Source: Candidatus Marinacidobacterales bacterium | GTDB lineage: Bacteria > Acidobacteriota > Vicinamibacteria > Marinacidobacterales > SMYC01 | Assembly (NCBI GenBank): GCA_965237955.1 | Contig: OZ250169.1 | Span: 3,200,001-3,264,000, forward strand | DNA length: 64,000 bases | Direction: 5' to 3' | Shown here: positions 51,133 through 63,732 of the stretch, in pieces | Position numbering within the stretch: position 1 is the stretch's first letter | Layout: each line of letters starts with the position of its first letter | Program-made: the position numbers and the translations under genes | Notes under the pieces: model-generated | Told to the model about the DNA's origin: nothing | Database searches by the model: none | What the model saw: only the letters and a program-made list of their open reading frames with translations

Positions 51133-51311
51133 TGCACTCAACCGAAACCGCCACAAGACCTGGCCCACCACCATCCACGCCCAGCGCGTCAGCGGCCCGT
51201 ATGGCAAACATCAGGAAAGGCGCACGTGATGACGACCCCCTTGCCTCTATCAATATCGATAGGAACTTTAACCAACCGCACGATGAGTGCTAGGTCGAAG
51301 TCTAATGACCC

Positions 51312-52800
51312 GTGCTGCTCACACAGACATCATGCAGATTTCCGAGCAGGTTTTCGACGAGCCCCTGGCCTGGCGACACTCCGGACAGCAGGGCCAGCGC
51401 GAGACGGTTCGCAGCGATGGCAACTCGCTGCTCGATTTGCCGCGCTCCTGACCCGCTGCGCTGTCTTGCGTTGCTCGGAGAGCCGCTCTCGCAGATTCTC
51501 CTCCCGGCTGAAGTACACCTCGTCCGGCGTGCGAGCTCCGAGAACGGCGCGCGGGATCTTCTCGTTGTGCTCACGGACGTAGAACGCGACGCGACGCCGC
51601 ACCGCCGCCGCACTGTCGAGGGTGTTCAGGAAGAGCCACGCGTGCTTCAATTGTCGCCAGAACGCCTCGATCAAGGAGTTCGAGGAGATGATGTCGATCT
51701 GCGCGAGCACACGATGCAGAGAACTTGAATCCCGGAGCAGCTGGTCGACCTCGCCAAAGTTCTCCGAACCGCCGTTCGGTGACGACAACTACGTTCGCGG
51801 TCGCTGAGTCGTCCGGAAGGCTCTTTGACACCTCGATGAGGAACTCCCGGGTGGTGGCCGAGCTCAGCTTCTCGCTCACCCGCCAAGCAAGAATCCTTCG
51901 GCTGAAATTATCGATGACCGCCTGCAGTTAGATTCGGATGCCGGTCGTCAGCCGGATCACGGTCGCGTCGATTTGCCAGTACTCGTTGGGGCGCGTCGCC
52001 CTGAGGCCTGTCTTGGGCTTCGCCGGATGCACCCGCCTTCGAGGACGTTTCCACCCGCGCCTGCGGATCATCTTGTACCATGTGCTTGCCGAGGCGAAGA
52101 GCTTGCCAAGCCGCTGCGCGTAAAGCGCTAAGTTCTGGACGGCGATGTGGCGATAGCTCTTGGACTCAACGAAATCTCTCATCGTGGAGACTTCGTCGCG
52201 CGTGAGCTGGCTGGGAGTGGACTTCGGACAGCTCGGTTGATCGTCGAGTCCGCAGCCGTCTTCCTTGCGCCTCCACGCGTGATAACGCGCCGTCGAGACG
52301 CCCACGATTCTGAGCACGGTGCTTAACGACAGGAGACCAGTCGCCGACGCGATCGCCCGGAGCACCGCCGATTTGGTCTCACCATCGGGAAGGCGATCCC
52401 CGTCGAGTTTTCCCCGGCGGAACCTCAACACACGCACGAGTAACCCGATGATCGCCGCCTGCACCTTGGCTCGCTGTCTTAGATTGTCGACCTGCTCCAA
52501 CAGCTCGTAGACTTCCAGCTCAACGTCCACCGAAGCGACCACGGGCCGTACCTCGCCGCGCGCCCATGTGCGTCGCGTCGACGCGGGGATGGCGACATCC
52601 CGGAAGAGGTCCGCATTGCCCGTCGCGGCGATGGCGTCACGCAGCCGATGGTCGTAGCTCCGCCGAACTCGGTGGGTTCTCATCATGCCCAAGAATGGCA
52701 GGGTGCTACTCTCATCGCCAGCTGGCCGATCATGGCTGCGTGCAAAGGAGCCTGTCGAACTTTCGCTCTCCGTCGTCCACAATGATCGTGCGAAGAGCAC
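51312..52800 (-). mobile_element. 1489-bp DDE element, copy 4 (nonsense codon at 51928, frameshift ~51776)
   Basis: Same length and IRs as copy 1, but different inactivating lesions. Confidence 0.9.
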
Positions 52801-52803
52801 CGC

Positions 52804-53051
52804 TGTAGTTGCTTGCCCTACACAGCTGCGCGCGGCAACAGGCCGCAATGCCCGTGCATACATGAAATTAGAACGGTAGACACCACCGTCCCCAGCCAGC
52901 TGAGCCGGTGCGGTCACGAACCGTATCCGCCCTGGTTACACTCCGTCGCCCGAACCGCGAAACGAATGCGACGTCATCACCCGACCCACCAACGACTTAG
53001 CCAGCCCTCGGCAATCGTGTTCTTGCGACCTCGCGCGGCAGCGTTCTTGCA
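52804..53051 (+). promoter_or_regulatory. Putative enhancer sites plus sigma-54 promoter of the PLD operon
   Basis: TGTAG-N9-CTACA at 52804-52822, degenerate CGTAT-N9-TTACA at 52922-52940, and CGGCAGCGTTCTTGCA (GG-N10-GC) at 53036-53051, 32 bp before the ATG. Confidence 0.7.
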
Positions 53052-53083
53052 AGGTCGTCATCAGACCAAGACGGGAGAGGCCC

Positions 53084-54487
53084 ATGAGCTGCGTTGCCAC
53101 ACCAAACCCTCTACTGACCAGGGAGCTCGAGCGCGCGACGGATCGGATGACCGGAACCCGGATCCGCGATGGCAATCAGGTCACCCTCATGGAAAGTGGC
53201 ACCGAGTCTTACGACATGCGCTGGGACCTGCTGGAAAATGCCAAGCACACGATCCACATCGTGACCTTCTCCGTCATGCGGGACGATGTCAGCAGGCGCC
53301 TTCGTGACGTGTTGAAGCGGAAGTTGGCGCAAGGTGTTGCCGTCCGTTTCATTCTCGACGACCTCGTTCTCTACACGACTTTCAGTATGGGTATCATCGA
53401 AGAGATGGAGCAGGCCGGGGTTGAGCTCGTTCGATACAACAAGCTGTTCGAGAATCTCTTGCCCGAGTGGGGGACTGGCCGCCCGATTCACAAATTCGTT
53501 CGCGCCGTGAAAATCAAGCAGAAGCGACGGTTTCACGAGAAGTACATCATCGTGGACGGGCGCGACCTGGTGCTCGGTGGCATGAACTGGGGCGGCAAGT
53601 ATGCATTCGGCGGGGTGAAACCGAAGTCCTGGCGTGACACCGACGTTCATGTGACCGGACCCGTGGTCGCGGACGTGCAACGACAGTTCATCCGGGACTT
53701 CTTCCTGTACTCCGTCATGAACCGGGACGGGCGACGCCGCCCGCCTGGTGTGACCTGGGACTCACACGTTCGGCAAGCCATCGAAGACGAAGCAAAATTC
53801 ATCGAGCGGGAGGGCGAAGCCATCTTTCCCGCAACGGAGCACAGGGGCGAGGCGCGCATCCGCTATCTCCCGCACAAGCCCTACGACGAAAGTCGACTCC
53901 GCATCACGGACGCTTTGCTCCTCACATTCAGCCGCGCGCAGAAATCTATCTTCTGGGGCTGCCACGGCATCCGCCCTCCCCGCGTGGTCGCGGAAACCCT
54001 GGCCGCGGCCGCGGAAAGGGGAGTGGATGTACGACTCATCACCAACAACAGGAAAGCCGCGCGCACCCTGGTGGCATTCGGTCTGCTGGGATGGATGTAC
54101 TGGGAGAGCAGCAACCACTACCGATGGCTTCTCGATCGAGGGATCCGCATCTTCGAATGGCAAAAGCCAGGCGCATTCCACTCCAAAGCTCTAGTCATCG
54201 ACGACGTGATCGCGTCCGTGGGATCTTACAACATTTCTCGGGGATCGACCTTTCACCATACAGAGAGCAACGTCGTCGTCTATGAAGAACGGTTCGCTCG
54301 CGAGCTCTCGAATCAGTTCGAAAAGGATTTCGATGACTGCATCGAGTTGAAACTGAGTGACGCGAAAGAGCCTTACTACGACCCGTACCAACGAGTGCTG
54401 CACGAACGCAATTTGCTCGTGGACCGGTCGCTGCAAACGGAGGCGATTCGCGAGGAGCTCGATGCGGGAAACTACAAACGAATGTGA
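53084..54487 (+). CDS. Phospholipase D-superfamily enzyme with two HKD motifs (cardiolipin-synthase-like, no N-terminal TMs)
   Basis: HEKYIIVD...GGMN, WRDTDVHVTGP, HSKALVID...VGSYN. Confidence 0.9.
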   Translation: MSCVATPNPLLTRELERATDRMTGTRIRDGNQVTLMESGTESYDMRWDLLENAKHTIHIVTFSVMRDDVSRRLRDVLKRKLAQGVAVRFILDDLVLYTTFSMGIIEEMEQAGVELVRYNKLFENLLPEWGTGRPIHKFVRAVKIKQKRRFHEKYIIVDGRDLVLGGMNWGGKYAFGGVKPKSWRDTDVHVTGPVVADVQRQFIRDFFLYSVMNRDGRRRPPGVTWDSHVRQAIEDEAKFIEREGEAIFPATEHRGEARIRYLPHKPYDESRLRITDALLLTFSRAQKSIFWGCHGIRPPRVVAETLAAAAERGVDVRLITNNRKAARTLVAFGLLGWMYWESSNHYRWLLDRGIRIFEWQKPGAFHSKALVIDDVIASVGSYNISRGSTFHHTESNVVVYEERFARELSNQFEKDFDDCIELKLSDAKEPYYDPYQRVLHERNLLVDRSLQTEAIREELDAGNYKRM

Positions 54488-54527
54488 AGCATTGCAGGAG
54501 ACAAAGACCCTTCCAGGAGGCAACAAA

Positions 54528-55445
54528 ATGAGCTCATTGGCCGGACCGTTCGACGACATGTATCGGGCGCTCGTCTTCTTCTCGGGCGACATCCGGAGAC
54601 TGCACGCATTTCCCTGGTTCACCTGGTCGAAGCACGAGCATGCGGTGACGCATCGGGAGGTGCTCAAAGCGCTTCCAAGTATTCAGTTTGGGGATGTTGG
54701 CTTGCACCGCGACTGGGGCTACTTGTCCAACGTGGCGATCCCTGGTTTCATGAAACATGCCTGGATCCACGTCCAGGATGGCAGTGTCGAGCCCGAGATC
54801 GTGGAAGCGATCAGTGAGGGTGTCATCCGACGAAGCCCCGTCTATCCCATGCATTCGGACTACGCCATCATTCTCACGCCGAGCGATGAGGCCAACGTCA
54901 CCGACGAAGAGCGAAAAGGCGCATGTCTGAAAGCCAAGCAAATCGTAGGTGAAGAGTATGATCATCGTTTCGAGTTCGATATCGAAGCGGAGCTCGCTTT
55001 CTACCAGGGGCATGACAGGGACGAAGCGTGTCAGCACTTGCAGGAAGGAAACACCTGGCTGCGCGCCTATGACCACGCCTTTAGCTGCACGGAAGCCGTG
55101 AGCTATGCCTGGTGGCATCGACGCAAGGCGCTCGGCATCCGACGTACGCGGCGCTTCCGAAAATCGATCATCCTTGCCGATACGTTCCTCAACCGCGGCT
55201 GGAAGATCAAGTGGGCTAGTCCCCTGGATCTTTGATTACTATACAAAGTTAGGCTTTTCGCCAGCCCATAAGATTCATAAGATTCATGCACTTAGAAGGG
55301 TTTCGGCAAGCTCTGCTTTATCTAGTTTGTTCTGATACAGGGGACTAGCAGAAGCGTGACCACCGACGATGCGCGCAAGTATGGGCTCGGTGACGAGGGA
55401 ATCTCGCTCATCGAAGACTACCGGAAGAGCGCAGAAAAATACTGA
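54528..55445 (+). pseudogene. Permuted papain-like NlpC/P60 (YaeF/YiiX-type) enzyme interrupted by a MITE
   Basis: GD...IPG..KHAWI...EA.SEGV...VG.EYD.RF...SCTEAV..A (His before Cys). AGGAGG RBS. Excising the MITE gives a 262-aa ORF. Confidence 0.8.
55216..55348. mobile_element. 125-bp MITE, copy 2, with CTAG duplication
   Basis: Core 55220-55344 with CTAG on both sides, inside a coding frame. Confidence 0.93.
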
Positions 55446-55473
55446 CGCGGCTACCTACTACAAGTAAGCGCGG

Positions 55474-55593
55474 TGTAGCGCGCTCCACGACAGTTCCCCT
55501 CCCTTCCGCTCATTGAAGATGCCGCGTATGTACCCGCTATCAAACGAAAAGTCGTTCGATGCACTCCTCGTCGCCGATGGCAGCTTTCTTGCA
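55474..55593 (+). promoter_or_regulatory. Putative enhancer site plus sigma-54 promoter of the second unit
   Basis: TGTAG-N9-CGACA at 55474-55492 and TGGCAGCTTTCTTGCA at 55578-55593. Confidence 0.72.
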
Positions 55594-55677
55594 AAGTGCT
55601 TCATCAGCGAGGGGTGAGCGGGAATCTGGTCGCGGACCGGGAGCGCATCCCTCGAAACTCAGAAAGGGAGAAGACAC

Positions 55678-56047
55678 ATGGCTAAAGGAAAAAGAGAAGG
55701 CAAGGGGAAACCCATCACATCCCGCGCGGAGCTCGGTGGCGATCTGAATCTCGCTGAAGCCGTCAAGCTGCAGCCGGCCTGGATGCAGCGCGAGCTCAAG
55801 GCAATTTCGGAAATACGAAAGCAAAGTACTCGCAGCGTTGAAAGACGAGGCCAATGCAGAGCTTTTCGCCCGGGATCCCGGCACGCTTTTGAGCCAGCTC
55901 GAGATACCGATGTCGGGATCTTTCCGCCAACGCCTGCGTAGTGACGTCTCGTTGGCCGAGCTCAAGAAGAAGCACTGTTTCGAGCTTCCCAATGGACAAG
56001 TCATCGCACCCAATATCCGGATTCGCTTCACCAAAGAGGAGGACTAG
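55678..56047 (+). CDS. Hypothetical ~122-aa protein (one-base frameshift at ~55810)
   Basis: GGGAG RBS. Removing one base from TCGGAAATAC joins ...ELKAIS to YESKVLAALKDEANAELFARDP...TKEED*. The stop is 3 bp before the next ATG. Confidence 0.65.
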
Positions 56048-56050
56048 CTT

Positions 56051-58494
56051 ATGGCAGGCACACAAACAGCCGGATTCGATCTGGTCATGCAGTTTTCCGA
56101 GGAAGCCTATCGTGAGCTCTTGGGGGTCTTCTTCGACGAGAGTGACATTTTCGGTTCCATCGTGGATCTGATTCCAGGCGTGGATGCCGACGAGTTCACC
56201 ATCGACGTGTCTCTGGATCGTCCGACAGACGTTACCCTGCCGGCAACCGCGGAGAATCCGCTGGACATCCAGTTGGGTATCGGTGAAGGGGGTAGCCTCG
56301 CTTCCCTGCGCATGATCGTGGGTATGAACGTGGACCGGAACGATGCGGACAGGGACAAAGTCCAAATCGATTTCGCGAACAGCATCTATGACGCCTCCGT
56401 GACCATCGGTTCGACGAACATACCGATACCGAATCTCGAAGATCGCCTCTCGGACATCATTCCGACGGTGCCCGTTCTCCCGGTGCCGGTCGACCGCACC
56501 TCCACGAGCCCAACGCAAATCACCCGCGTCGATTTCAAGATTGTCGACGACCCGTCGCCGGCCGATCGGGATGCCACGGCTGCCATGTTTACTTTCGGTG
56601 GCGGTTCACCGGGCGACAGCGACGCTCTCCAAAGATTCGTTCCCGACGGGGGTCGGGGTGGCATCGGCATCTTCTTCGAGTGGCTCTGCCGCATGGCGGT
56701 ACCCCGGCTTGAGAGCGCTCTGGATCTGCCCGCGGGCTCCTTCGATATCAGTGCCGACCGTTGCGCCCTCAACCGATCCTTCACGGTGGACGAAGACGAG
56801 GACGTGGTGATGACCAGCCTCGTTCTGAGCCTCGCCGACGGTTTCATCGATGTCTCCGCCCGGGTCGAGAAGAGCGGATTCTGCTACGAAGCTTCGGGCA
56901 ACGTGGGCGCGCGGCTGCGGTTGGCGGTGACCGGCGGTCGACTGCAGGCCTCGGTCGAGATCGATGATCCGGACGTCGACGTGGACATTCCTTGGTATTG
57001 CTGGCTCGCCGGTGCCGTGGTGGGAGCCGTCATCGGTGGTGTGCTCCTCGGCGTCATCGGCGCCATCGTCGGCGGAATCCTCGTACCTCTCATCACTTAT
57101 CTCGCCACGGAGGTAATCGAAGGAACGATCGAGGAGGTAGCCGGAAGAATCTCGGATGCGATCAACGATGCCGTGCCCGACCTGGACGTCCCCGCGTTCG
57201 GGATCAACATCCTGTTCGATGAAGTTTTCATCGACGATGTGGTGCTCCGGGCCCAGCTGGAGGTCGAATCTCACGCGCCGGTCCGCACGCAGGGAACCGT
57301 CACCTTGCACAACAATCGTGGCTTCGATCTGGACACGGGCAAAGTGCTGCCGTCAGGAACGCCGGAAGCAGACTTGCGCTGGGTCGGTCATCGTGCGCGG
57401 CGCAAGCTCCAGACCGGATGCCAGGCGGCTTTGGCTCGAACGGGAACGACCAACTTCTCTGGTCTCGCGCGCTACGAGCTTTACGCGTTCGGATACGCAA
57501 CGCCCACGGCGGTGCGGTTGTGGGAGCTCGGTCTGGAAAATCCTCTCGGCTTTCTCTTCGGGGATGATTTCATCGAGTTCCGTCGCGTCTATGCGATGCG
57601 CACCAACGAAGGTCGATACGCCGTCGTTCAAATCATCGACATTGAGGACGGCCATATACGTCTGCGCTACAAACGTTCGAGCGCCGCGTTCTTTCCGTGA
57701 ACATCACCGGCGACTTCAAGTGCGTGAAGGCATTCGTGCCTCCGAAGGAGGCAGTCGTTGCTTTTGTGCCCGGACTAGTCGCTAGCAGCGTGGTTGGCAG
57801 TGAGCTGTTCCGTCCCGAGCTTTCCGCGGCAGCGACGATAGCGACGGCTTCCTCAACGAGTGCGCGTTTGCCCGCCGCATCGCTTGCAGCGCGCATGACG
57901 TCGGCGGCCTTCGCGGCGGCTCATGCAGATGACGACTGCGCTGAAGGCACTCCAACGACTTCAGCGGGCTCGACCGGCTCGAGCAGTCCAGACATCACCG
58001 TGCGCAGCCAGAGGCTGCCCGATTGTGGTCGCAAGACTGCGATTCCGGCGCCGCACGACGGTCGCTGGGTGGCTCGCTTTCCTGCCAGGCAAATGGCACA
58101 GGCGCGACTCGAGGCGGTGACGTCCGGAACCATCGGCGAAGTGGAGTATGTCTGGCTCATCGGCGGAGAGAGACTGGAAGGAAATGCTGGATCGCGCGCG
58201 GTGGGAGGCGTCGACGTTTCCTACCGTGTCAGTGGGCCGCGATTGATCCTGACGGTTCCCGATACCGCGGAAATCGAGCTGTTCGTCAAAGTGCAAGTGA
58301 TCGACAAGCTCGGTTGCTCGGCGAGTGCGTCGAAATGCGTCCACCATGACGGGCGCTGCCCCATCAAAGTTCGCTACATTCCGGGATGGAAGCAGTTCAT
58401 GGCAGTGCAAGCGGTCCCGGTAGCGAGCCTGGCAAGCGTCACCCTGGCAAGCGCATCGATGTCGGAGCCGGTTCTGTACGCCTCCGTCGAATAA
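56051..58494 (+). CDS. Large hypothetical protein (~810 aa; frameshift at ~57672) with beta-rich N-domain, Gly-rich hydrophobic hairpin and C-terminal beta domains
   Basis: GAGGAGG RBS. Adding one A at TACAAACG gives YKTFERRVLSVNITGDFKC, fusing ORFs 56051-57700 and 57697-58494. Confidence 0.7.
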
Positions 58495-58553
58495 ACGGCG
58501 TTTCGTGACTCAGGGGAGGCCACTCGTGTGGCCCCCCTTACTTCGCCAGCACA

Positions 58554-58660
58554 TGTAGTTGGCGGCGCTACACATCGAGACCCGCCCGTCAAAACAAAGT
58601 CGCTTTCTTTCACACAGTTGCGCCGGATATACCGTCGCAAGACCTGGCACGAGTCCTGCT
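58554..58660 (+). promoter_or_regulatory. Putative enhancer site plus sigma-54 promoter of the KAP gene
   Basis: TGTAG-N9-CTACA at 58554-58572, TGGCACGAGTCCTGCT at 58645-58660, then GAGGAGG RBS and ATG at 58686. Confidence 0.72.
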
Positions 58661-58685
58661 TATCTCTGCCTTCGAGGAGGGTCGC

Positions 58686-61600
58686 ATGTCAGCTAAACCC
58701 GGGAAGGCGTCACACCGCAGCGAGGCTCATGCCCCCTCGCGCTATCGGGGGCTCTCGCTCCGACGAGCCTTGTTCGTCACGGGGTTCATGCTCATGGCGG
58801 CGAGCACCTGGTTCGCATTCCGGCAAGCTCCCCGTGCGAGCATCGACCAGCCCCCTACGCTCATCGAGTGGTTCCGCAGTCCCGTCGAGACGAACGCCTT
58901 TCGCCGGCTACCGCTCATCGAGGGCGATCTTCGCAGTGTCCATGCACTTCCAGACACTCACACCGCGTGGATCGTCGGACCGGACGAGCTCATTCTGCGC
59001 ACGAGCGACGGTGGCCGGAGCTGGGAGCGGCAACCTATCCTCGCGGAAGGCTCATCGCCGGCAGAGCGCGCGTCGCTACACTCTGTTTCCGGTGGTCCAC
59101 GCGGGGGAGCCCCAAAAGATTCCGATGGGTGTTGTGGTTGGGATGTGCCTGGACGAGGCGGGAGCGATCTTGCCTGGAGTCGCCATCGTTCTCCGGGATT
59201 TGAGCACAGAAGAAACGATTCGCGGCGAATCCGATGAGCAGGGCTACTTCGCCGTTCCCATACCCATTGGCGCCTACATGTTCACGGCCGGACTTCCTGG
59301 ATTCCGCCCGATCAACATCGAGGTTCAGCTCGTGGAGGACGAAAGCGAATGGAACATGGGGAAGCTGGTCTTCGAGGTCGACGCGGCCTCGAAGTTCGAG
59401 CAAGCGAAACGACCCGTTCTGCAACTTCCGAAGCTTCGCGTGGTCGCACCTGACAAAATCAAGCCAGCTCCGGTCGAATCGGAGCCCGAGCCTGCCGCTA
59501 CGCCGCCGTCCCCACCCGAGGGTCCGTCCGAACTTCACGCGGTGCAGTTCATCGACGCTGAGGTGGGCTGGGCAGTGGGCTCGGCTGGAACGGTCCTTTC
59601 CACATCGAACGGTGGCGCGAGCTGGGCTCGCCGCGATCCGGGCGTTCCGGACAGCCTGGTCGCACTTCACTTCATCGACGCGAGCCGGGGCTGGGTGGCG
59701 AGCGATGAAGGAAGCATCCTGTTCACGGAAACCGGCGGCCGCACGTGGCAATCGCAACACGCCGGAGCGGAAGGGCTCCGCGGCATCGAGTTCGCCGACG
59801 AGGAAACCGGCTGGGCCCTCACCTATCCGACCGCGGGTCTGCTCATCACCGTAGACGGTGGAGCAAACTGGGTGCGAGTGGCGCTACCGGAAGAAAGCGA
59901 GATAGCGTCGTTCGATTTCGTGGACGGGAACCACGGTTGGGCTGTGGGGGCGAGCGGTGCCATCCTCGTGACGCAGGATACGGGCATGAGTTGGGAGCCC
60001 CAGCAAAGCGGAACCGGCTCTGATTTGCTCGACGTCCACTTTCGCAACACGGGTGATGGCTGGGCCGTCGGACGAAACGGCACGATTCTCGTCACCGAGG
60101 ATGGCGGTCGACAGTGGCGAGCTGCACCGACACCTTCGGTCAAAACGCTGCGATCCATCCACTTCGCGAACGCATCGGTCGGGTGGGCCGTGGGCCGCGA
60201 CCTCGTGCTGCGAACAGCGGACGGTGGTGAAACGTGGCACCGGCAGGCGAGGGTTCGCGAAACCGACGCGCACTGGTTCTTCTTTCCCGAACCAACCCTG
60301 GGTTTCGTTACCGGCTCGCGTGGGGAGATTCTCACGACCGACGACGGCGGGACGACCTGGCGCAGCGGAGGCGAGTCGCTCGACCACATCCGCGCCATCG
60401 ACTTCACAAGCGCAGACAGCTGGTGGGCGCTCGCAGGCAATATGGCGGAAGAGATGCTGCTCAAGCACAGCGCCGATTTCGGAAAAAGCTGGCAAATCGA
60501 AACAACAGCGGATGCCGGCCAGACGGCCAGATTCGCGGATCTGCATTTTCTCGACGAGACAAAGGGGTTCGCTTTGTTTCGCAACGAGCTTTTTCAAACG
60601 GAGGATGGAGGTAAAACCTGGTACCGGAACACCAGTTTGAAAAGCGGGGACGAGCTGGTCGCCATCGGTTTCACGGATGACTCCCATGGATGGGTCGTTT
60701 GCGCTCGAGGCGATGTCTACGCCAGCGAGGACAGCGGCGCGAGCTGGAGCCCGCGCGCCGTCGCCGATGCCCGAAATGTCTGGAAAGCGCAGTTCGCCGA
60801 TGCCGAGAACGGATGCTTGCTCGAAGACGCCGGTACTGGCGGCTCCGTGATTCACTGTACGCGTGATGGCGGCGTCAACTGGGTTCATTTGCCCAGTAAG
60901 GTCGAGCTCCATTCCATTTTCGTGGAAGCCGGCGCTAGACGCTGGGCTGCGGGCGCAAACGGCACCATTTTGGTCAGCCGTGACGGGGGCACGAGCTGGA
61001 CGCCGAGCTCGAGCGGCGTCGAGCAGGATTTGACGTCCATCCATTTCGTGGACCAAAGCCTGGGTTTCGCCGCCGGGCTCGACAACACGTTTCTTACGAC
61101 GCGAGATGGCGGCGAGAGCTGGGAGGATGCGGCACCGTACCAACGTGCTCCGGCCCCTTGGTTCTATGTGAGTCTCCTGGCCGCGGGCATTTTGTTTTTC
61201 GCTCCCGCGTTCAAAAAACCTGCGCCGGCGGCTCCGCTTAAAAGCTCGGTCGCCGACGTATTCGTGTCCGACAAGCCCATAGAGTCAGCATCTGCGGATC
61301 GGCTTCGGTTCAACGAGCTCGCGGGCGGTCTGTTTCGTTTTCTCCGTAACGAGAACACGACGCCGCCCATGACGATCGCCATCACCGGAGCGTGGGGTAT
61401 GGGGAAGAGCTCTTTGATGAACCTCTTGCGCTCCCGGCTGCAGCATTTCGGCTTCAGGCCCGTCTGGTTCAACGCCTGGCATCACCAGAAGGGAAATCAG
61501 CTTCTCGCAGGGCTTCTCGAGAACATTCGCTTGCAGGCGGTTCCCACGTGGTGGCGTCCGGACGGTCTGGCGTTTCGGATGCGACTTCTCTTCATCCGGG

Positions 61601-63102
61601 GCTGGCGCCACTGCCTGCCCGTCATTCTCATGCTGCTCGTCTTCTCGGTTTCGGCCGGCTACATCCTGGCCCATGGACCCCATGAAGTCCAAAACGACGT
61701 ACGGACCCTTATCGCTGGCCTAGTGGCGATCTTCTCCACTTCTTCGGCGCCGGCAGACGCGACGCGCTCTCACTTTCTCCCTTTCCTCATCTCTAGCCTG
61801 ACGCTTCTGGCCTCGACCTGGAAAGGTGTGACTGCTTTCAGCGGCGCACCGGGAAAGCTGGTGGCGAGTTTGACGGCGGGCCTGCGCATGAAGGATGTAA
61901 AAGCCGCGCACGGTTTTCGACACCAATTCGCACAAGAGTTCCGAGATGTGACCCAGGCATTTGCACCGCGACGCATGGCGATCTTCATCGATGACCTCGA
62001 TCGCTGCGCCCCTGAAAACGTGCTCGAGGCGCTCGAAGCCGTGAACTTCCTGGTGTCCTCCGGAGATTGTTTCGTCATCCTTGGCATGGCGATGGAACAG
62101 GTCGAGCACTGCGTAGGCGTGGCTCTGGAGAAAACGGGCCAGACACCCGAAAAGACCGACCGAACGGAGTCGAAGGGCGAAGGCGGATACGCTCGCTTCT
62201 ACATGGAGAAGCTCATCAATATCGAAGTAGCCGTCCCCACGCTGACGAGCGAGCAGTCCAGCGTGTTGCTCACACCGGAGCAACCGAGCGGTGAGAAGCG
62301 AGGCGGCATGGTGCGGTCGTCTTTGCTCACACCAGCCGTGCGCCGGTGGGTCCCGGCGCTCACACTCTTCGCAGTCACCGCCGTGGGATTCTGATGGGGC
62401 ACGACGCACGAAGCTCCCGAGCCGGTCACCGTCACCTCCTCAGCCATCCCAACGCGCGATCCCAGTCCCGTGGTCGAGCCGCCACCATCGACCCCGCCGA
62501 CAGGAGGTTCCGGCCTCGATTTCAAGATAGTTCGTCCGGCAAGTTTTCTCCCTGGAGCGGAGGCTCAGAACATTCCCTGGCGCTACTTTCTGTCCGGCGC
62601 TATCGTGCTGCTAGCGTTCGGCGTCTGGAAGCTCTCCCAGCCGCCCGACATTATTATTAAAGATTCCCCCACTTTTGCAGCTGCACTTCGCTTCTGGAGG
62701 CCGCTCGTCTACGCCAGCCGTCAGACGCCGCGCGGCATCAAGCGATACCTCAACCGGGTACGCTACTACGAGATGCTGCAGCGTCCCGCGAGCGCCTTCG
62801 CGTCCAGGTGGGGGCAGCTCCTGCACTGGTTGACCGGCCCGTCCGATGTCACCGAAGGGGATGCGATTCCCGAAGACGTTCTCGTGGCGCTGGCGGCGGT
62901 TGAGCTCATTCGACCGCAAGGCCTGCGCGACGAGCTTCTATGGACGGACTTCAGTGCGTTCCTGAGAAAGGAAATGGGCCCGGAGGCACCACTCCCGCAC
63001 GCCATCGACGACCACCTCGAGCGGATTGTGGCGAGCTGGCCATCACTGGGTCACTACCGCGACGCTTTCTTGAAGCTCACCTCGGGCGTCCGCATGGGTT
63101 GA
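58686..63102 (+). CDS. Membrane protein fusing YCF48-like (Asp-box) beta-propellers to a KAP-family P-loop NTPase; frameshift ~59075 and in-frame TGA at 62392
   Basis: N-terminal TM, more than 10 GWAVG..G.IL.T.DGG.W repeats, a TM, Walker A GAWGMGKS, FNAW, two inserted TMs, Walker B IFIDDLDRC, YMEKLI, and TPRGIKRYLN after the stop in the same frame. Confidence 0.85.
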
Positions 63103-63260
63103 GCGCGGGTTCGAGCGAGAGGGTGCTTCCGTCAAAAAGTGTTGGTGTAATGAATTAAGTCTTTATGGTGCAACAAACTTACAGTCAAATTGGGCCCCGT
63201 CGACTTCGGTTCGCATTGAAGTCGGCGTAAGCGCTCTGTTTGCAAGGGAATGCGTACACA

Positions 63261-63732
63261 TCACCAACAGTAGACGGCGGAAGCACCGTAGAGGATCTCG
63301 AACTCGTTGATGTCCCTCGCCGGAGTCGACGCCGCCGTTGGCGCGGCTGTCAAGTCGGTTTCGCGTCGCCCTTCCTCGAAGAGCGCGCGCACACTCGGTG
63401 GGTATGTATCGGTGTCCAACGTGTAGCTAGGACTTAGCCGAAGGACGTTCGTGAAGCTCTCTTTGGCGGCCTCCGAATCCTGTAGCGCAAAGTAGGTCAA
63501 GCCGAGATAGAGGTGCCCCTCGATGCGCATCGCTTCGCCGTTCGCGACGTCGGGCCGCTCGTCGAGCACACGGACGACGGCCCCGAGCGCTTGCATCGCA
63601 CGAATGAAGTTGGCGCTCTGGTAAAGAGCTTTCGCTTCATCGAGCTCGCGGGCGAGATCCGACTGGCTCGCGGCGGGCGACCGCCGTCGAGCTCGAGATG
63701 ACCAAGACTGTGGCGACGAAGGATTGCATCAT
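63261..63732 (-). pseudogene. Secreted TPR protein, frameshifted/truncated
   Basis: Signal-like MMQSFVATVLVI, then EAKALYQSANF...HLYLGLTYFAL...FTNVLRLSP in another frame. Confidence 0.55.

Follow-up and report, generated by a model that had tools for sequence, protein, structure and literature searches.

Do five adjacent genes that face the same way behind look-alike control signals make up one system, and what might such a system do? The question is posed by positions 52804..63102 of a window of 64,000 nucleotides (G000:C1:3200001-3264000), taken from a host genome, G000, that is a single 8.13-Mb contig of 98% completeness; some close homologues bear Acidobacteriota labels, which suggests that placement for the host. 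A first-pass annotation had read this region as a five-gene module under sigma-54 control, with a lipid or membrane theme and a possible defence role. Gene calls confirm five co-oriented genes in three units (Table 1), encoding a phospholipase D (PLD), a permuted papain-like enzyme, a small protein (S), a large protein (LP), and a protein that joins a YCF48 beta-propeller to a KAP NTPase. The unity of the five is not borne out: four genes, those for PLD, papain, S and LP, form a recurrent cross-phylum cassette that occurs in several gene orders. Below, L-numbered loci are fetched stretches with homologues or sites, and X-numbered items are short-read runs.

A cassette of four genes

The 102 full-length LP loci fall into 48 clusters at 85% identity, 23 of them with full flanks. 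S adjoins LP in 44 of the 48 clusters, the PLD clade is present in 13 (8 of the 23 with full flanks), permuted papain is present in 9, and both enzymes are present in 8. Linkage was measured from LP loci toward PLD; the same PLD clade was found in 0 of 400 sampled genomes of the phylum, and the adjacency of LP and PLD is therefore not background. Profiles for S and papain were made from genome loci, so that the independent test of these two consists of the metagenome loci only. Edaphocola, Marinilabilia and L067 share the order PLD-papain-S-LP, while S-LP-PLD-papain is found in L069, L074 and L081, a convergent arrangement in L011, L025 and L068, and PLD-S-LP in Fibrobacteria. LPs linked to PLD are spread over several clades of a quick tree of 37 rows (4 changes). 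Several Mycobacteriaceae (L014, L017-L023, L043, L046) carry S-LP with neither PLD nor papain, and the core pair can therefore stand alone.

In the window LP is split into frames of 549 and 265 residues, which represent a single gene: the homologue P0001 (797 aa) aligns to them at 96% and 83%, across the frameshift given in Table 1. The family has 105 homologue clusters from several phyla and one archaeon, and is without a Pfam family. LP was found in none of 54 other genomes of the order and in 2 of 61 mycobacterial relatives, and searches of plasmids, viral contigs and viral folds for LP relatives returned nothing clear. The fold was judged on a predicted model of P0001 (predicted local distance difference test, pLDDT, 83), in which the N-terminal half is predicted to be a double TULIP, two tandem domains in each of which a curved sheet surrounds a long helix. 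Foldseek matches of the model, with E values from 3e-13 to 1e-6, include the OrfX1-OrfX3 entry (3.3e-13), P47 (1.7e-10), BPI (8e-7), OrfX2, LBP and CETP, and VIA-align over the double-TULIP region gives a top Z of 15.0 (root-mean-square deviation 5.2, 370 aligned), the next being 14.0. The N-termini of LP are not hydrophobic, and no signal peptide was seen. No P47/OrfX Pfam hit occurs among 57 LP members, and the LP profile run against the PDB retrieved no OrfX or P47 chain. In the ESM Atlas, S and LP matched unnamed clusters only.

The model of S (pLDDT 73) is made of six helices, and no strand in it reaches three residues. In a structure search with S the best Z was 3.5, which is no match in fold, and OrfX1 was absent from the matches listed; S is therefore unlikely to be the equivalent of OrfX1 or TipB. 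Family hits of S are weak and point to IniB-N/NHLP: IniB_NTERM matches 16 of 36 members with E values of up to 0.5, the best being 5.9e-5. In one cluster a PatG-domain gene (L077:5634-6281) lies just 5' of S-LP, which may be compared with the weak NHLP-clan hits of S.

PLD matches PLDc_2 at E 1.7e-35, contains two HxKxxxxD motifs and has no transmembrane segment; both HKD motifs are present in 120 of 120 homologues, and no signal peptide was seen. Its best family matches are cardiolipin synthases, at scores below the NCBIfam cut-offs (137.8 against 290 bits and 118.1 against 281 bits), and a comparison with PDB sequences gave 0 matches. The clade comprises up to 172 clusters at E 1e-30. Permuted papain has an invariant His77 ahead of Cys187; against the C92 Pfam cut-off of 27 bits, the L074 homologue scores 53.5 and the window copy alone 16.3. 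The lipid or membrane theme proposed in the first-pass annotation is supported.

Table 1. Coordinates of the genes, mobile elements, control signals and LP domains discussed in the text.
Feature	Position	Strand	Remarks
PLD, two-HKD phospholipase D / cardiolipin-synthase-like, soluble, 467 aa	53084..54487	+	unit 1; sole unbroken gene of the five
Permuted papain-like gene (C92/YiiX-type)	54528..55445	+	frame stops at 55235 within the miniature inverted-repeat transposable element (MITE); original 3' end past the MITE
S, small mostly helical protein, ~120 aa in homologues	55678..56047	+	frameshift near 55807
LP, large protein, ~800 aa in homologues	56051..58494	+	frameshift 57670-57673; predicted double TULIP
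YCF48 beta-propeller + KAP NTPase	58686..63102	+	unit 3; single gene in homologues
MITE, 132 bp, CTAG target	55217..55348	.	114 full copies in G000
Multi-copy insertion sequence (IS), ~10 copies	51310-52804	.	end is the first base of the unit-1 palindrome
Palindrome TGTAG-N9-CTACA, unit 1, exact	52804..52822	.	likely activator site; begins at the IS end
Sigma-54-type -24/-12 motif, unit 1	53036..53051	+	GG at 53037; 232 bp from palindrome; motif also in L067
Palindrome, unit 2, one mismatch	55474..55492	.	orthologous L067 site perfect; also before the same genes in L068
Sigma-54-type motif, unit 2	55578..55593	+	GG at 55579; 104 bp from palindrome
Palindrome TGTAG-N9-CTACA, unit 3, exact	58554..58572	.
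Sigma-54-type motif, unit 3	58645..58660	+	GG at 58646; 91 bp from palindrome
LP double TULIP	residues 1-408		predicted model
LP glycine-rich hydrophobic hairpin	residues 313-357		hydrophobic in 86/86 sequences
LP HmuY-like domain	residues 410-545		VIA-align Z 13.5
LP Ig-like (immunoglobulin-like) domain	residues 547-756		VIA-align Z ~9

Palindromes, promoters and a likely activator

As the first-pass annotation had reported, a GG-N10-GC motif precedes each unit; the upstream palindrome it described as common to all three is exact before units 1 and 3 and differs at one base before unit 2. The bare GG-N10-GC pattern is uninformative (84 plus-strand matches in window positions 52501-63300), and the number of palindromes is not enriched, since the same pattern written backwards, used as a control, is found 13 times in G000 against 7; the significance lies in position only. 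With a spacer of 9 there are 7 exact palindromes in 8.13 Mb, and with each of the spacers 5-8 and 10-13 there are 0-1. A strict sigma-54 motif lies 60-260 bp from 10 of the 58 palindromes with at most one mismatch, compared with 1.1 +/- 1.0 for random positions. When promoters were scored with a motif built from the consensus, all 7 exact palindromes of G000 passed, compared with 6.75% of random positions; in relatives, 28 of 44 exact sites passed against 9.45% of controls, these 44 being what remains of 55 sites once 9 adjacent to the activator and 2 in G039 are omitted. RpoN is intact in G000 (PF04552, an open frame of 511 aa without a stop). Second palindromes in the window were sought and only 3-mismatch candidates, at 52922 and 58527, were seen, and the consensus for integration host factor was found between palindrome and promoter in 0 of 3 units. 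Promoter motifs and the positional enrichment of the palindrome together argue, at the sequence level, for shared sigma-54 control.

About twenty sigma-54 activators are encoded in G000. The likely cognate one (G000:C1:7012353-7014138, minus strand) has a GAF domain, an AAA+ domain with GAFTGA, and a helix-turn-helix, with no match to a receiver domain. In the 18 other genomes of the family, an exact palindrome is found in 13 and an orthologue of this activator in 12; the two agree in 17 of 18, the sole discord being G039 (84% complete), and all 5 genomes lacking the palindrome also lack the activator. Palindromes, often two about 41 bp apart, lie 3' of the activator stop, with a promoter motif in 11 of 13 genomes. 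The ~200 nucleotides that follow this promoter align across 11 genomes and are a candidate structured RNA; the G000 copy has a folding z of -7.2, terminator counted in, and a search of Rfam gave 0 matches at E up to 1. The neighbourhood of activator and RNA (L002:11940-12165, minus strand) is conserved, with a convergent Ser/Thr kinase on one side and, on the other flank, what we take to be bshB1/bshA-like genes. Myxococcus Pxr and Vibrio Qrr are arranged alike, the activator gene having beside it a structured non-coding RNA as well as a sigma-54 promoter; the present case differs from them in its GAF input domain without a receiver hit, its lack of an Rfam match and its different host group.

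Genes 3' of palindromes in relatives encode Amidase_2, M23, M10, CHAT, metallophosphoesterase, PKS/FAAL, halogenase, MbnB, TauD and kinase proteins, the CHAT, M10 and patatin targets standing at palindromes below the promoter threshold; 8 of the 26 target proteins scanned have no Pfam hit. Apart from the window genes, most targets belong to lysis or to secondary metabolism. The most conserved protein among the regulon targets examined has 70 residues and no Pfam hit, and is found behind palindrome and promoter at G000:C1 ~7038370-7038585 (minus strand) and in L200, L213, L216 and L220. The remaining exact palindromes of G000 stand before this gene, a gene for a 308-aa protein of no known family and the IS-cut lytic-transglycosylase-like gene treated below. 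A 308-aa target (L004:6444-7370, plus strand), with neither a Pfam nor an NCBIfam hit, follows two exact palindromes 41 bp apart. The evidence points to a likely undescribed sigma-54 regulon, with the GAF activator as the probable reader of the palindrome. The shared signals behind the proposed regulon thus stand, and its confinement to the locus does not, the signals being spread through the genome and the family. A PilZ protein (L008:7790-8332, plus strand) lies behind a spacer-8 variant of the palindrome and a sigma-54-like motif.

Palindrome and promoter precede S-LP only in L067 and L068, the closest homologues examined, and in 0 of 40 genome loci, and the cassette was therefore recruited to the regulon locally. 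The expectation that orthologues would recur together elsewhere with the same promoter holds for the four genes and, for the signals, extends to those two loci.

Possible function and related systems

The reading we favour, with confidence about evenly balanced, is that the four-gene cassette is a module for antagonism, damaging to membranes and released by a route other than Sec, rather than a housekeeping pathway, that YCF48-KAP is unrelated to it, and that one GAF activator probably reads the promoter signals of both. Antagonism is favoured because signal peptides are lacking, the LP fold resembles OrfX/P47 and the regulon co-targets are lytic. In such a module TGTAG-N9-CTACA, 60-230 bp upstream of the -24/-12 promoter, would be the binding site from which the GAF activator opens that promoter. 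The glycine-rich hairpin would let LP dock on a bilayer, with the double-TULIP tube extracting or presenting lipids and the HmuY-like and Ig domains choosing the target. S might chaperone or gate LP, and on the lipids so presented the optional PLD and permuted papain could cleave or exchange head groups and acyl chains.

Several points weigh against this reading. PLD is not seen in 35 of the 48 clusters (15 of the 23 with full flanks), because of which PLD and papain must be regarded as optional. The correlation between LP and PLD distances (rho 0.45, 0 of 5000 permutations) is inflated by related sequences, and the tree is a quick one. TM-scores of the LP fold matches are low (0.29-0.31 by query), and a common fold by itself does not show function. 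Among exact palindromes in relatives, 16 of 44 fail the promoter threshold. The candidate RNA shows two-sided change in 13 of 22 predicted pairs, with 0 of 500 shuffles as high and slid controls far lower, the structure having been drawn from the scored alignment and the covariation score being inflated by kinship. For the cassette neither an export route nor an immunity gene could be recognised; its neighbours are housekeeping genes, and the lytic co-targets tell little about cassette copies in Bacteroidota and Actinomycetota.

The nearest structural relatives are OrfX3, P47 and OrfX2 of orfX-p47 clusters (PDB 8bgm, 8fbd, 6ekt), which share with LP a double-TULIP core, predicted in LP, and an adjoining small gene. 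P47 can also bear fused C-terminal binding domains, according to PMC7020563. In contrast to the cassette, with one TULIP gene seen per locus, orfX-p47 clusters have three or four, and OrfX1 is TULIP-like in the available part of PMC13030710, whereas S is mostly helical in its model. No sequence link to orfX-p47 is found through Pfam or the PDB, a scan of 56 flanking proteins, with several neighbours outside any Pfam family, showed no toxin gene, and the partners here are PLD and papain; the accessible portion of PMC7020563 mentions neither phospholipase, cardiolipin nor papain. More tentatively, S-LP may be a cousin of OrfX1-OrfX3/P47 that crosses phyla and has no neurotoxin. It would be a TULIP tube with a chaperone, whose glycine-zipper hairpin enters a target membrane and which feeds lipids to, or delivers, PLD and papain; in this bacterial family it would have been recruited to an undescribed sigma-54 "attack" regulon, run by a GAF activator together with a structured RNA that is new. 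If so, the cassette would offer a model for how OrfX/P47-type TULIPs act on membranes, a matter still largely open for the bacterial proteins according to PMC7020563. The LP family pairs an OrfX/P47-type fold with two lipid-enzyme folds and no adjoining toxin seen, and its hosts include culturable environmental bacteria (Edaphocola, Marinilabilia, Meiothermus) in which lipid handling is directly testable.

Two other TULIP systems invite comparison. Bdellovibrio TipA-TipB, described in the available section of bioRxiv 10.1101/2025.09.09.675085 as upregulated in predation and membrane-destabilising, resembles S-LP as an operonic double TULIP with a small partner. It differs, on the same partial text, in that TipB is a beta-sandwich and TipA-TipB is secreted, whereas S is helical with no signal peptide seen and LP carries a hydrophobic hairpin and two extra domains. 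The lipocone-TULIP system ClaspCone-1, in the passage available from PMC12419801, couples a TULIP to a head-group enzyme and to lipase/acyltransferase genes as the cassette would; it is periplasmic and membrane-anchored with a lipocone catalytic domain, and that passage contains neither HKD PLD nor permuted papain. Among enzymes, ClsA/ClsB and other HKD PLDs share the two HKD motifs with the cassette PLD, which differs in its sub-equivalog score and in belonging to a rare clade tied to LP loci; YiiX/C92 permuted papains share the His-before-Cys order. No description of the cassette or palindrome was found in the literature, mainly open-access papers, and the lack of a match to any named system holds in the libraries and papers searched. 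The regulon and the cross-phylum TULIP-lipid-enzyme cassette are apparently undescribed, although the fused double-TULIP homologues of bioRxiv 2025.09.09.675085 may include the LP family. For a bacterial family about which little is known, the regulon supplies a target list, a candidate RNA and a predicted pairing of activator and site.

A possible alternative, which we hold with clearly less conviction than the antagonism module, keeps the same regulon and cassette and makes them an in-house lipid-remodelling or lipid-signal pathway: LP-S would shuttle lipids at the inner membrane, papain transfer acyl chains, and PLD make cardiolipin-like or N-acyl products under stress. LRAT/HRASLS relatives do transfer acyl chains. 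The missing signal peptides of LP and PLD, the cardiolipin synthases as best PLD matches, the housekeeping neighbours with no toxin gene among the 56 flanking proteins scanned, and the operon-like order in Edaphocola and Marinilabilia all suit such a pathway. It is harder to reconcile with the very patchy spread of LP in the order and in mycobacterial relatives, with the variable C-terminal Ig/HmuY-like part of LP, with lytic co-targets in the regulon, and with PLD scores far under the Cls cut-offs.

It seems unlikely that the cassette is an abortive anti-phage system in which the KAP NTPase acts as sensor and the host's own membrane is damaged on infection. The cassette is patchy, cytoplasmic and PLD-containing, as such a system might be, and domain-level matches to DrmC, MkoB, QatA and PifA exist, although weak. 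For 137 neighbours, drawn from 27 loci, PADLOC returned nothing beyond generic matches to ATPases, helicases, proteases and methylases, so that the suggested defence role is not supported; QatA and DrmC scores fall short of their cut-offs, viral contigs and plasmids yielded no clear LP relative, and KAP accompanies the cassette in none of the 116 LP loci. DISARM, Qat, Pif and Mokosh were not found with full gene sets and cut-off scores, and no Qat or Pif partner gene is in the locus. QatA and PifA have the KAP domain in common with the window protein, which differs in its YCF48 propeller fusion.

That all five genes form one functional system is very improbable. They are adjacent, co-oriented and behind the same signals, and in the same strain the stretch from LP to YCF48-KAP is spanned by one contig of run X4. 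However, YCF48-KAP occurs in 0 of 116 LP loci (0 of 40 genome loci and 0 of 76 metagenome loci, many of the latter short), and L067, 90% identical to the window as far as 58552, two bases 5' of the unit-3 palindrome, continues with an S9 peptidase. Homologues of YCF48-KAP cover 58686-63102 as one protein, and the family is common, with 1011 clusters against 105 for LP; the KAP domain is above its Pfam cut-off, and the QatA score is 85.7 against 600 bits. On sequence grounds YCF48-KAP is a co-regulated neighbour, outside the cassette.

That the palindromes arose by chance or were made by an IS, with no common activator, is scarcely credible: their count does not exceed the backwards control and the unit-1 site starts where the 10-copy IS ends (52804-52805), but positional enrichment, spacer specificity, co-distribution with the activator and the unique flanks of four other palindrome sites all speak against it.

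Decay of the locus and circuit

The first-pass annotation proposed to repair the frames before analysis; the breaks are real in the strain. Contigs of X1 and X2, two runs whose samples and studies differ, span 52775-55243 and 55322-63223 without a single difference or gap, although X1 is possibly the source sample, and contigs of X4 cover parts of the locus with no differences. Assembly error as the source of the breaks was rejected, since contigs of all three runs are identical to the window over the genes. The papain gene is cut by a MITE that is not in L067 nor in run X6. YCF48-KAP has a frameshift between ~59040 and 59130 and an in-frame TGA at 62392-62394.

The likely activator is itself frameshifted after residue 94; X1 is identical there, and X2 also holds other contigs without the extra base. 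Another G000 target, from G000:C1:4922070 onward (plus strand), is interrupted by an IS; we take the target to be a membrane-anchored lytic-transglycosylase-like protein and the element to be IS21-like. Among orthologous loci elsewhere in G000, 3 of 21 are split, the activator included, against 4 of 5 genes here, which is high relative to the rest of the genome in a small sample. With a frameshift in its activator, breaks in four of the five genes here and an IS inside another target, the circuit is decaying in this strain, and it provides a natural case of a regulon decaying along with its activator.

All 114 MITE copies follow a C, and their ends are common to a ~1.3-kb element whose transposase is presumably IS630-like; one of the copies is at 4800030, the start of an activator match. 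Directly beyond the KAP gene, at 63121-63288, is a repeat of ~165 bp with about 49 matches in the genome.

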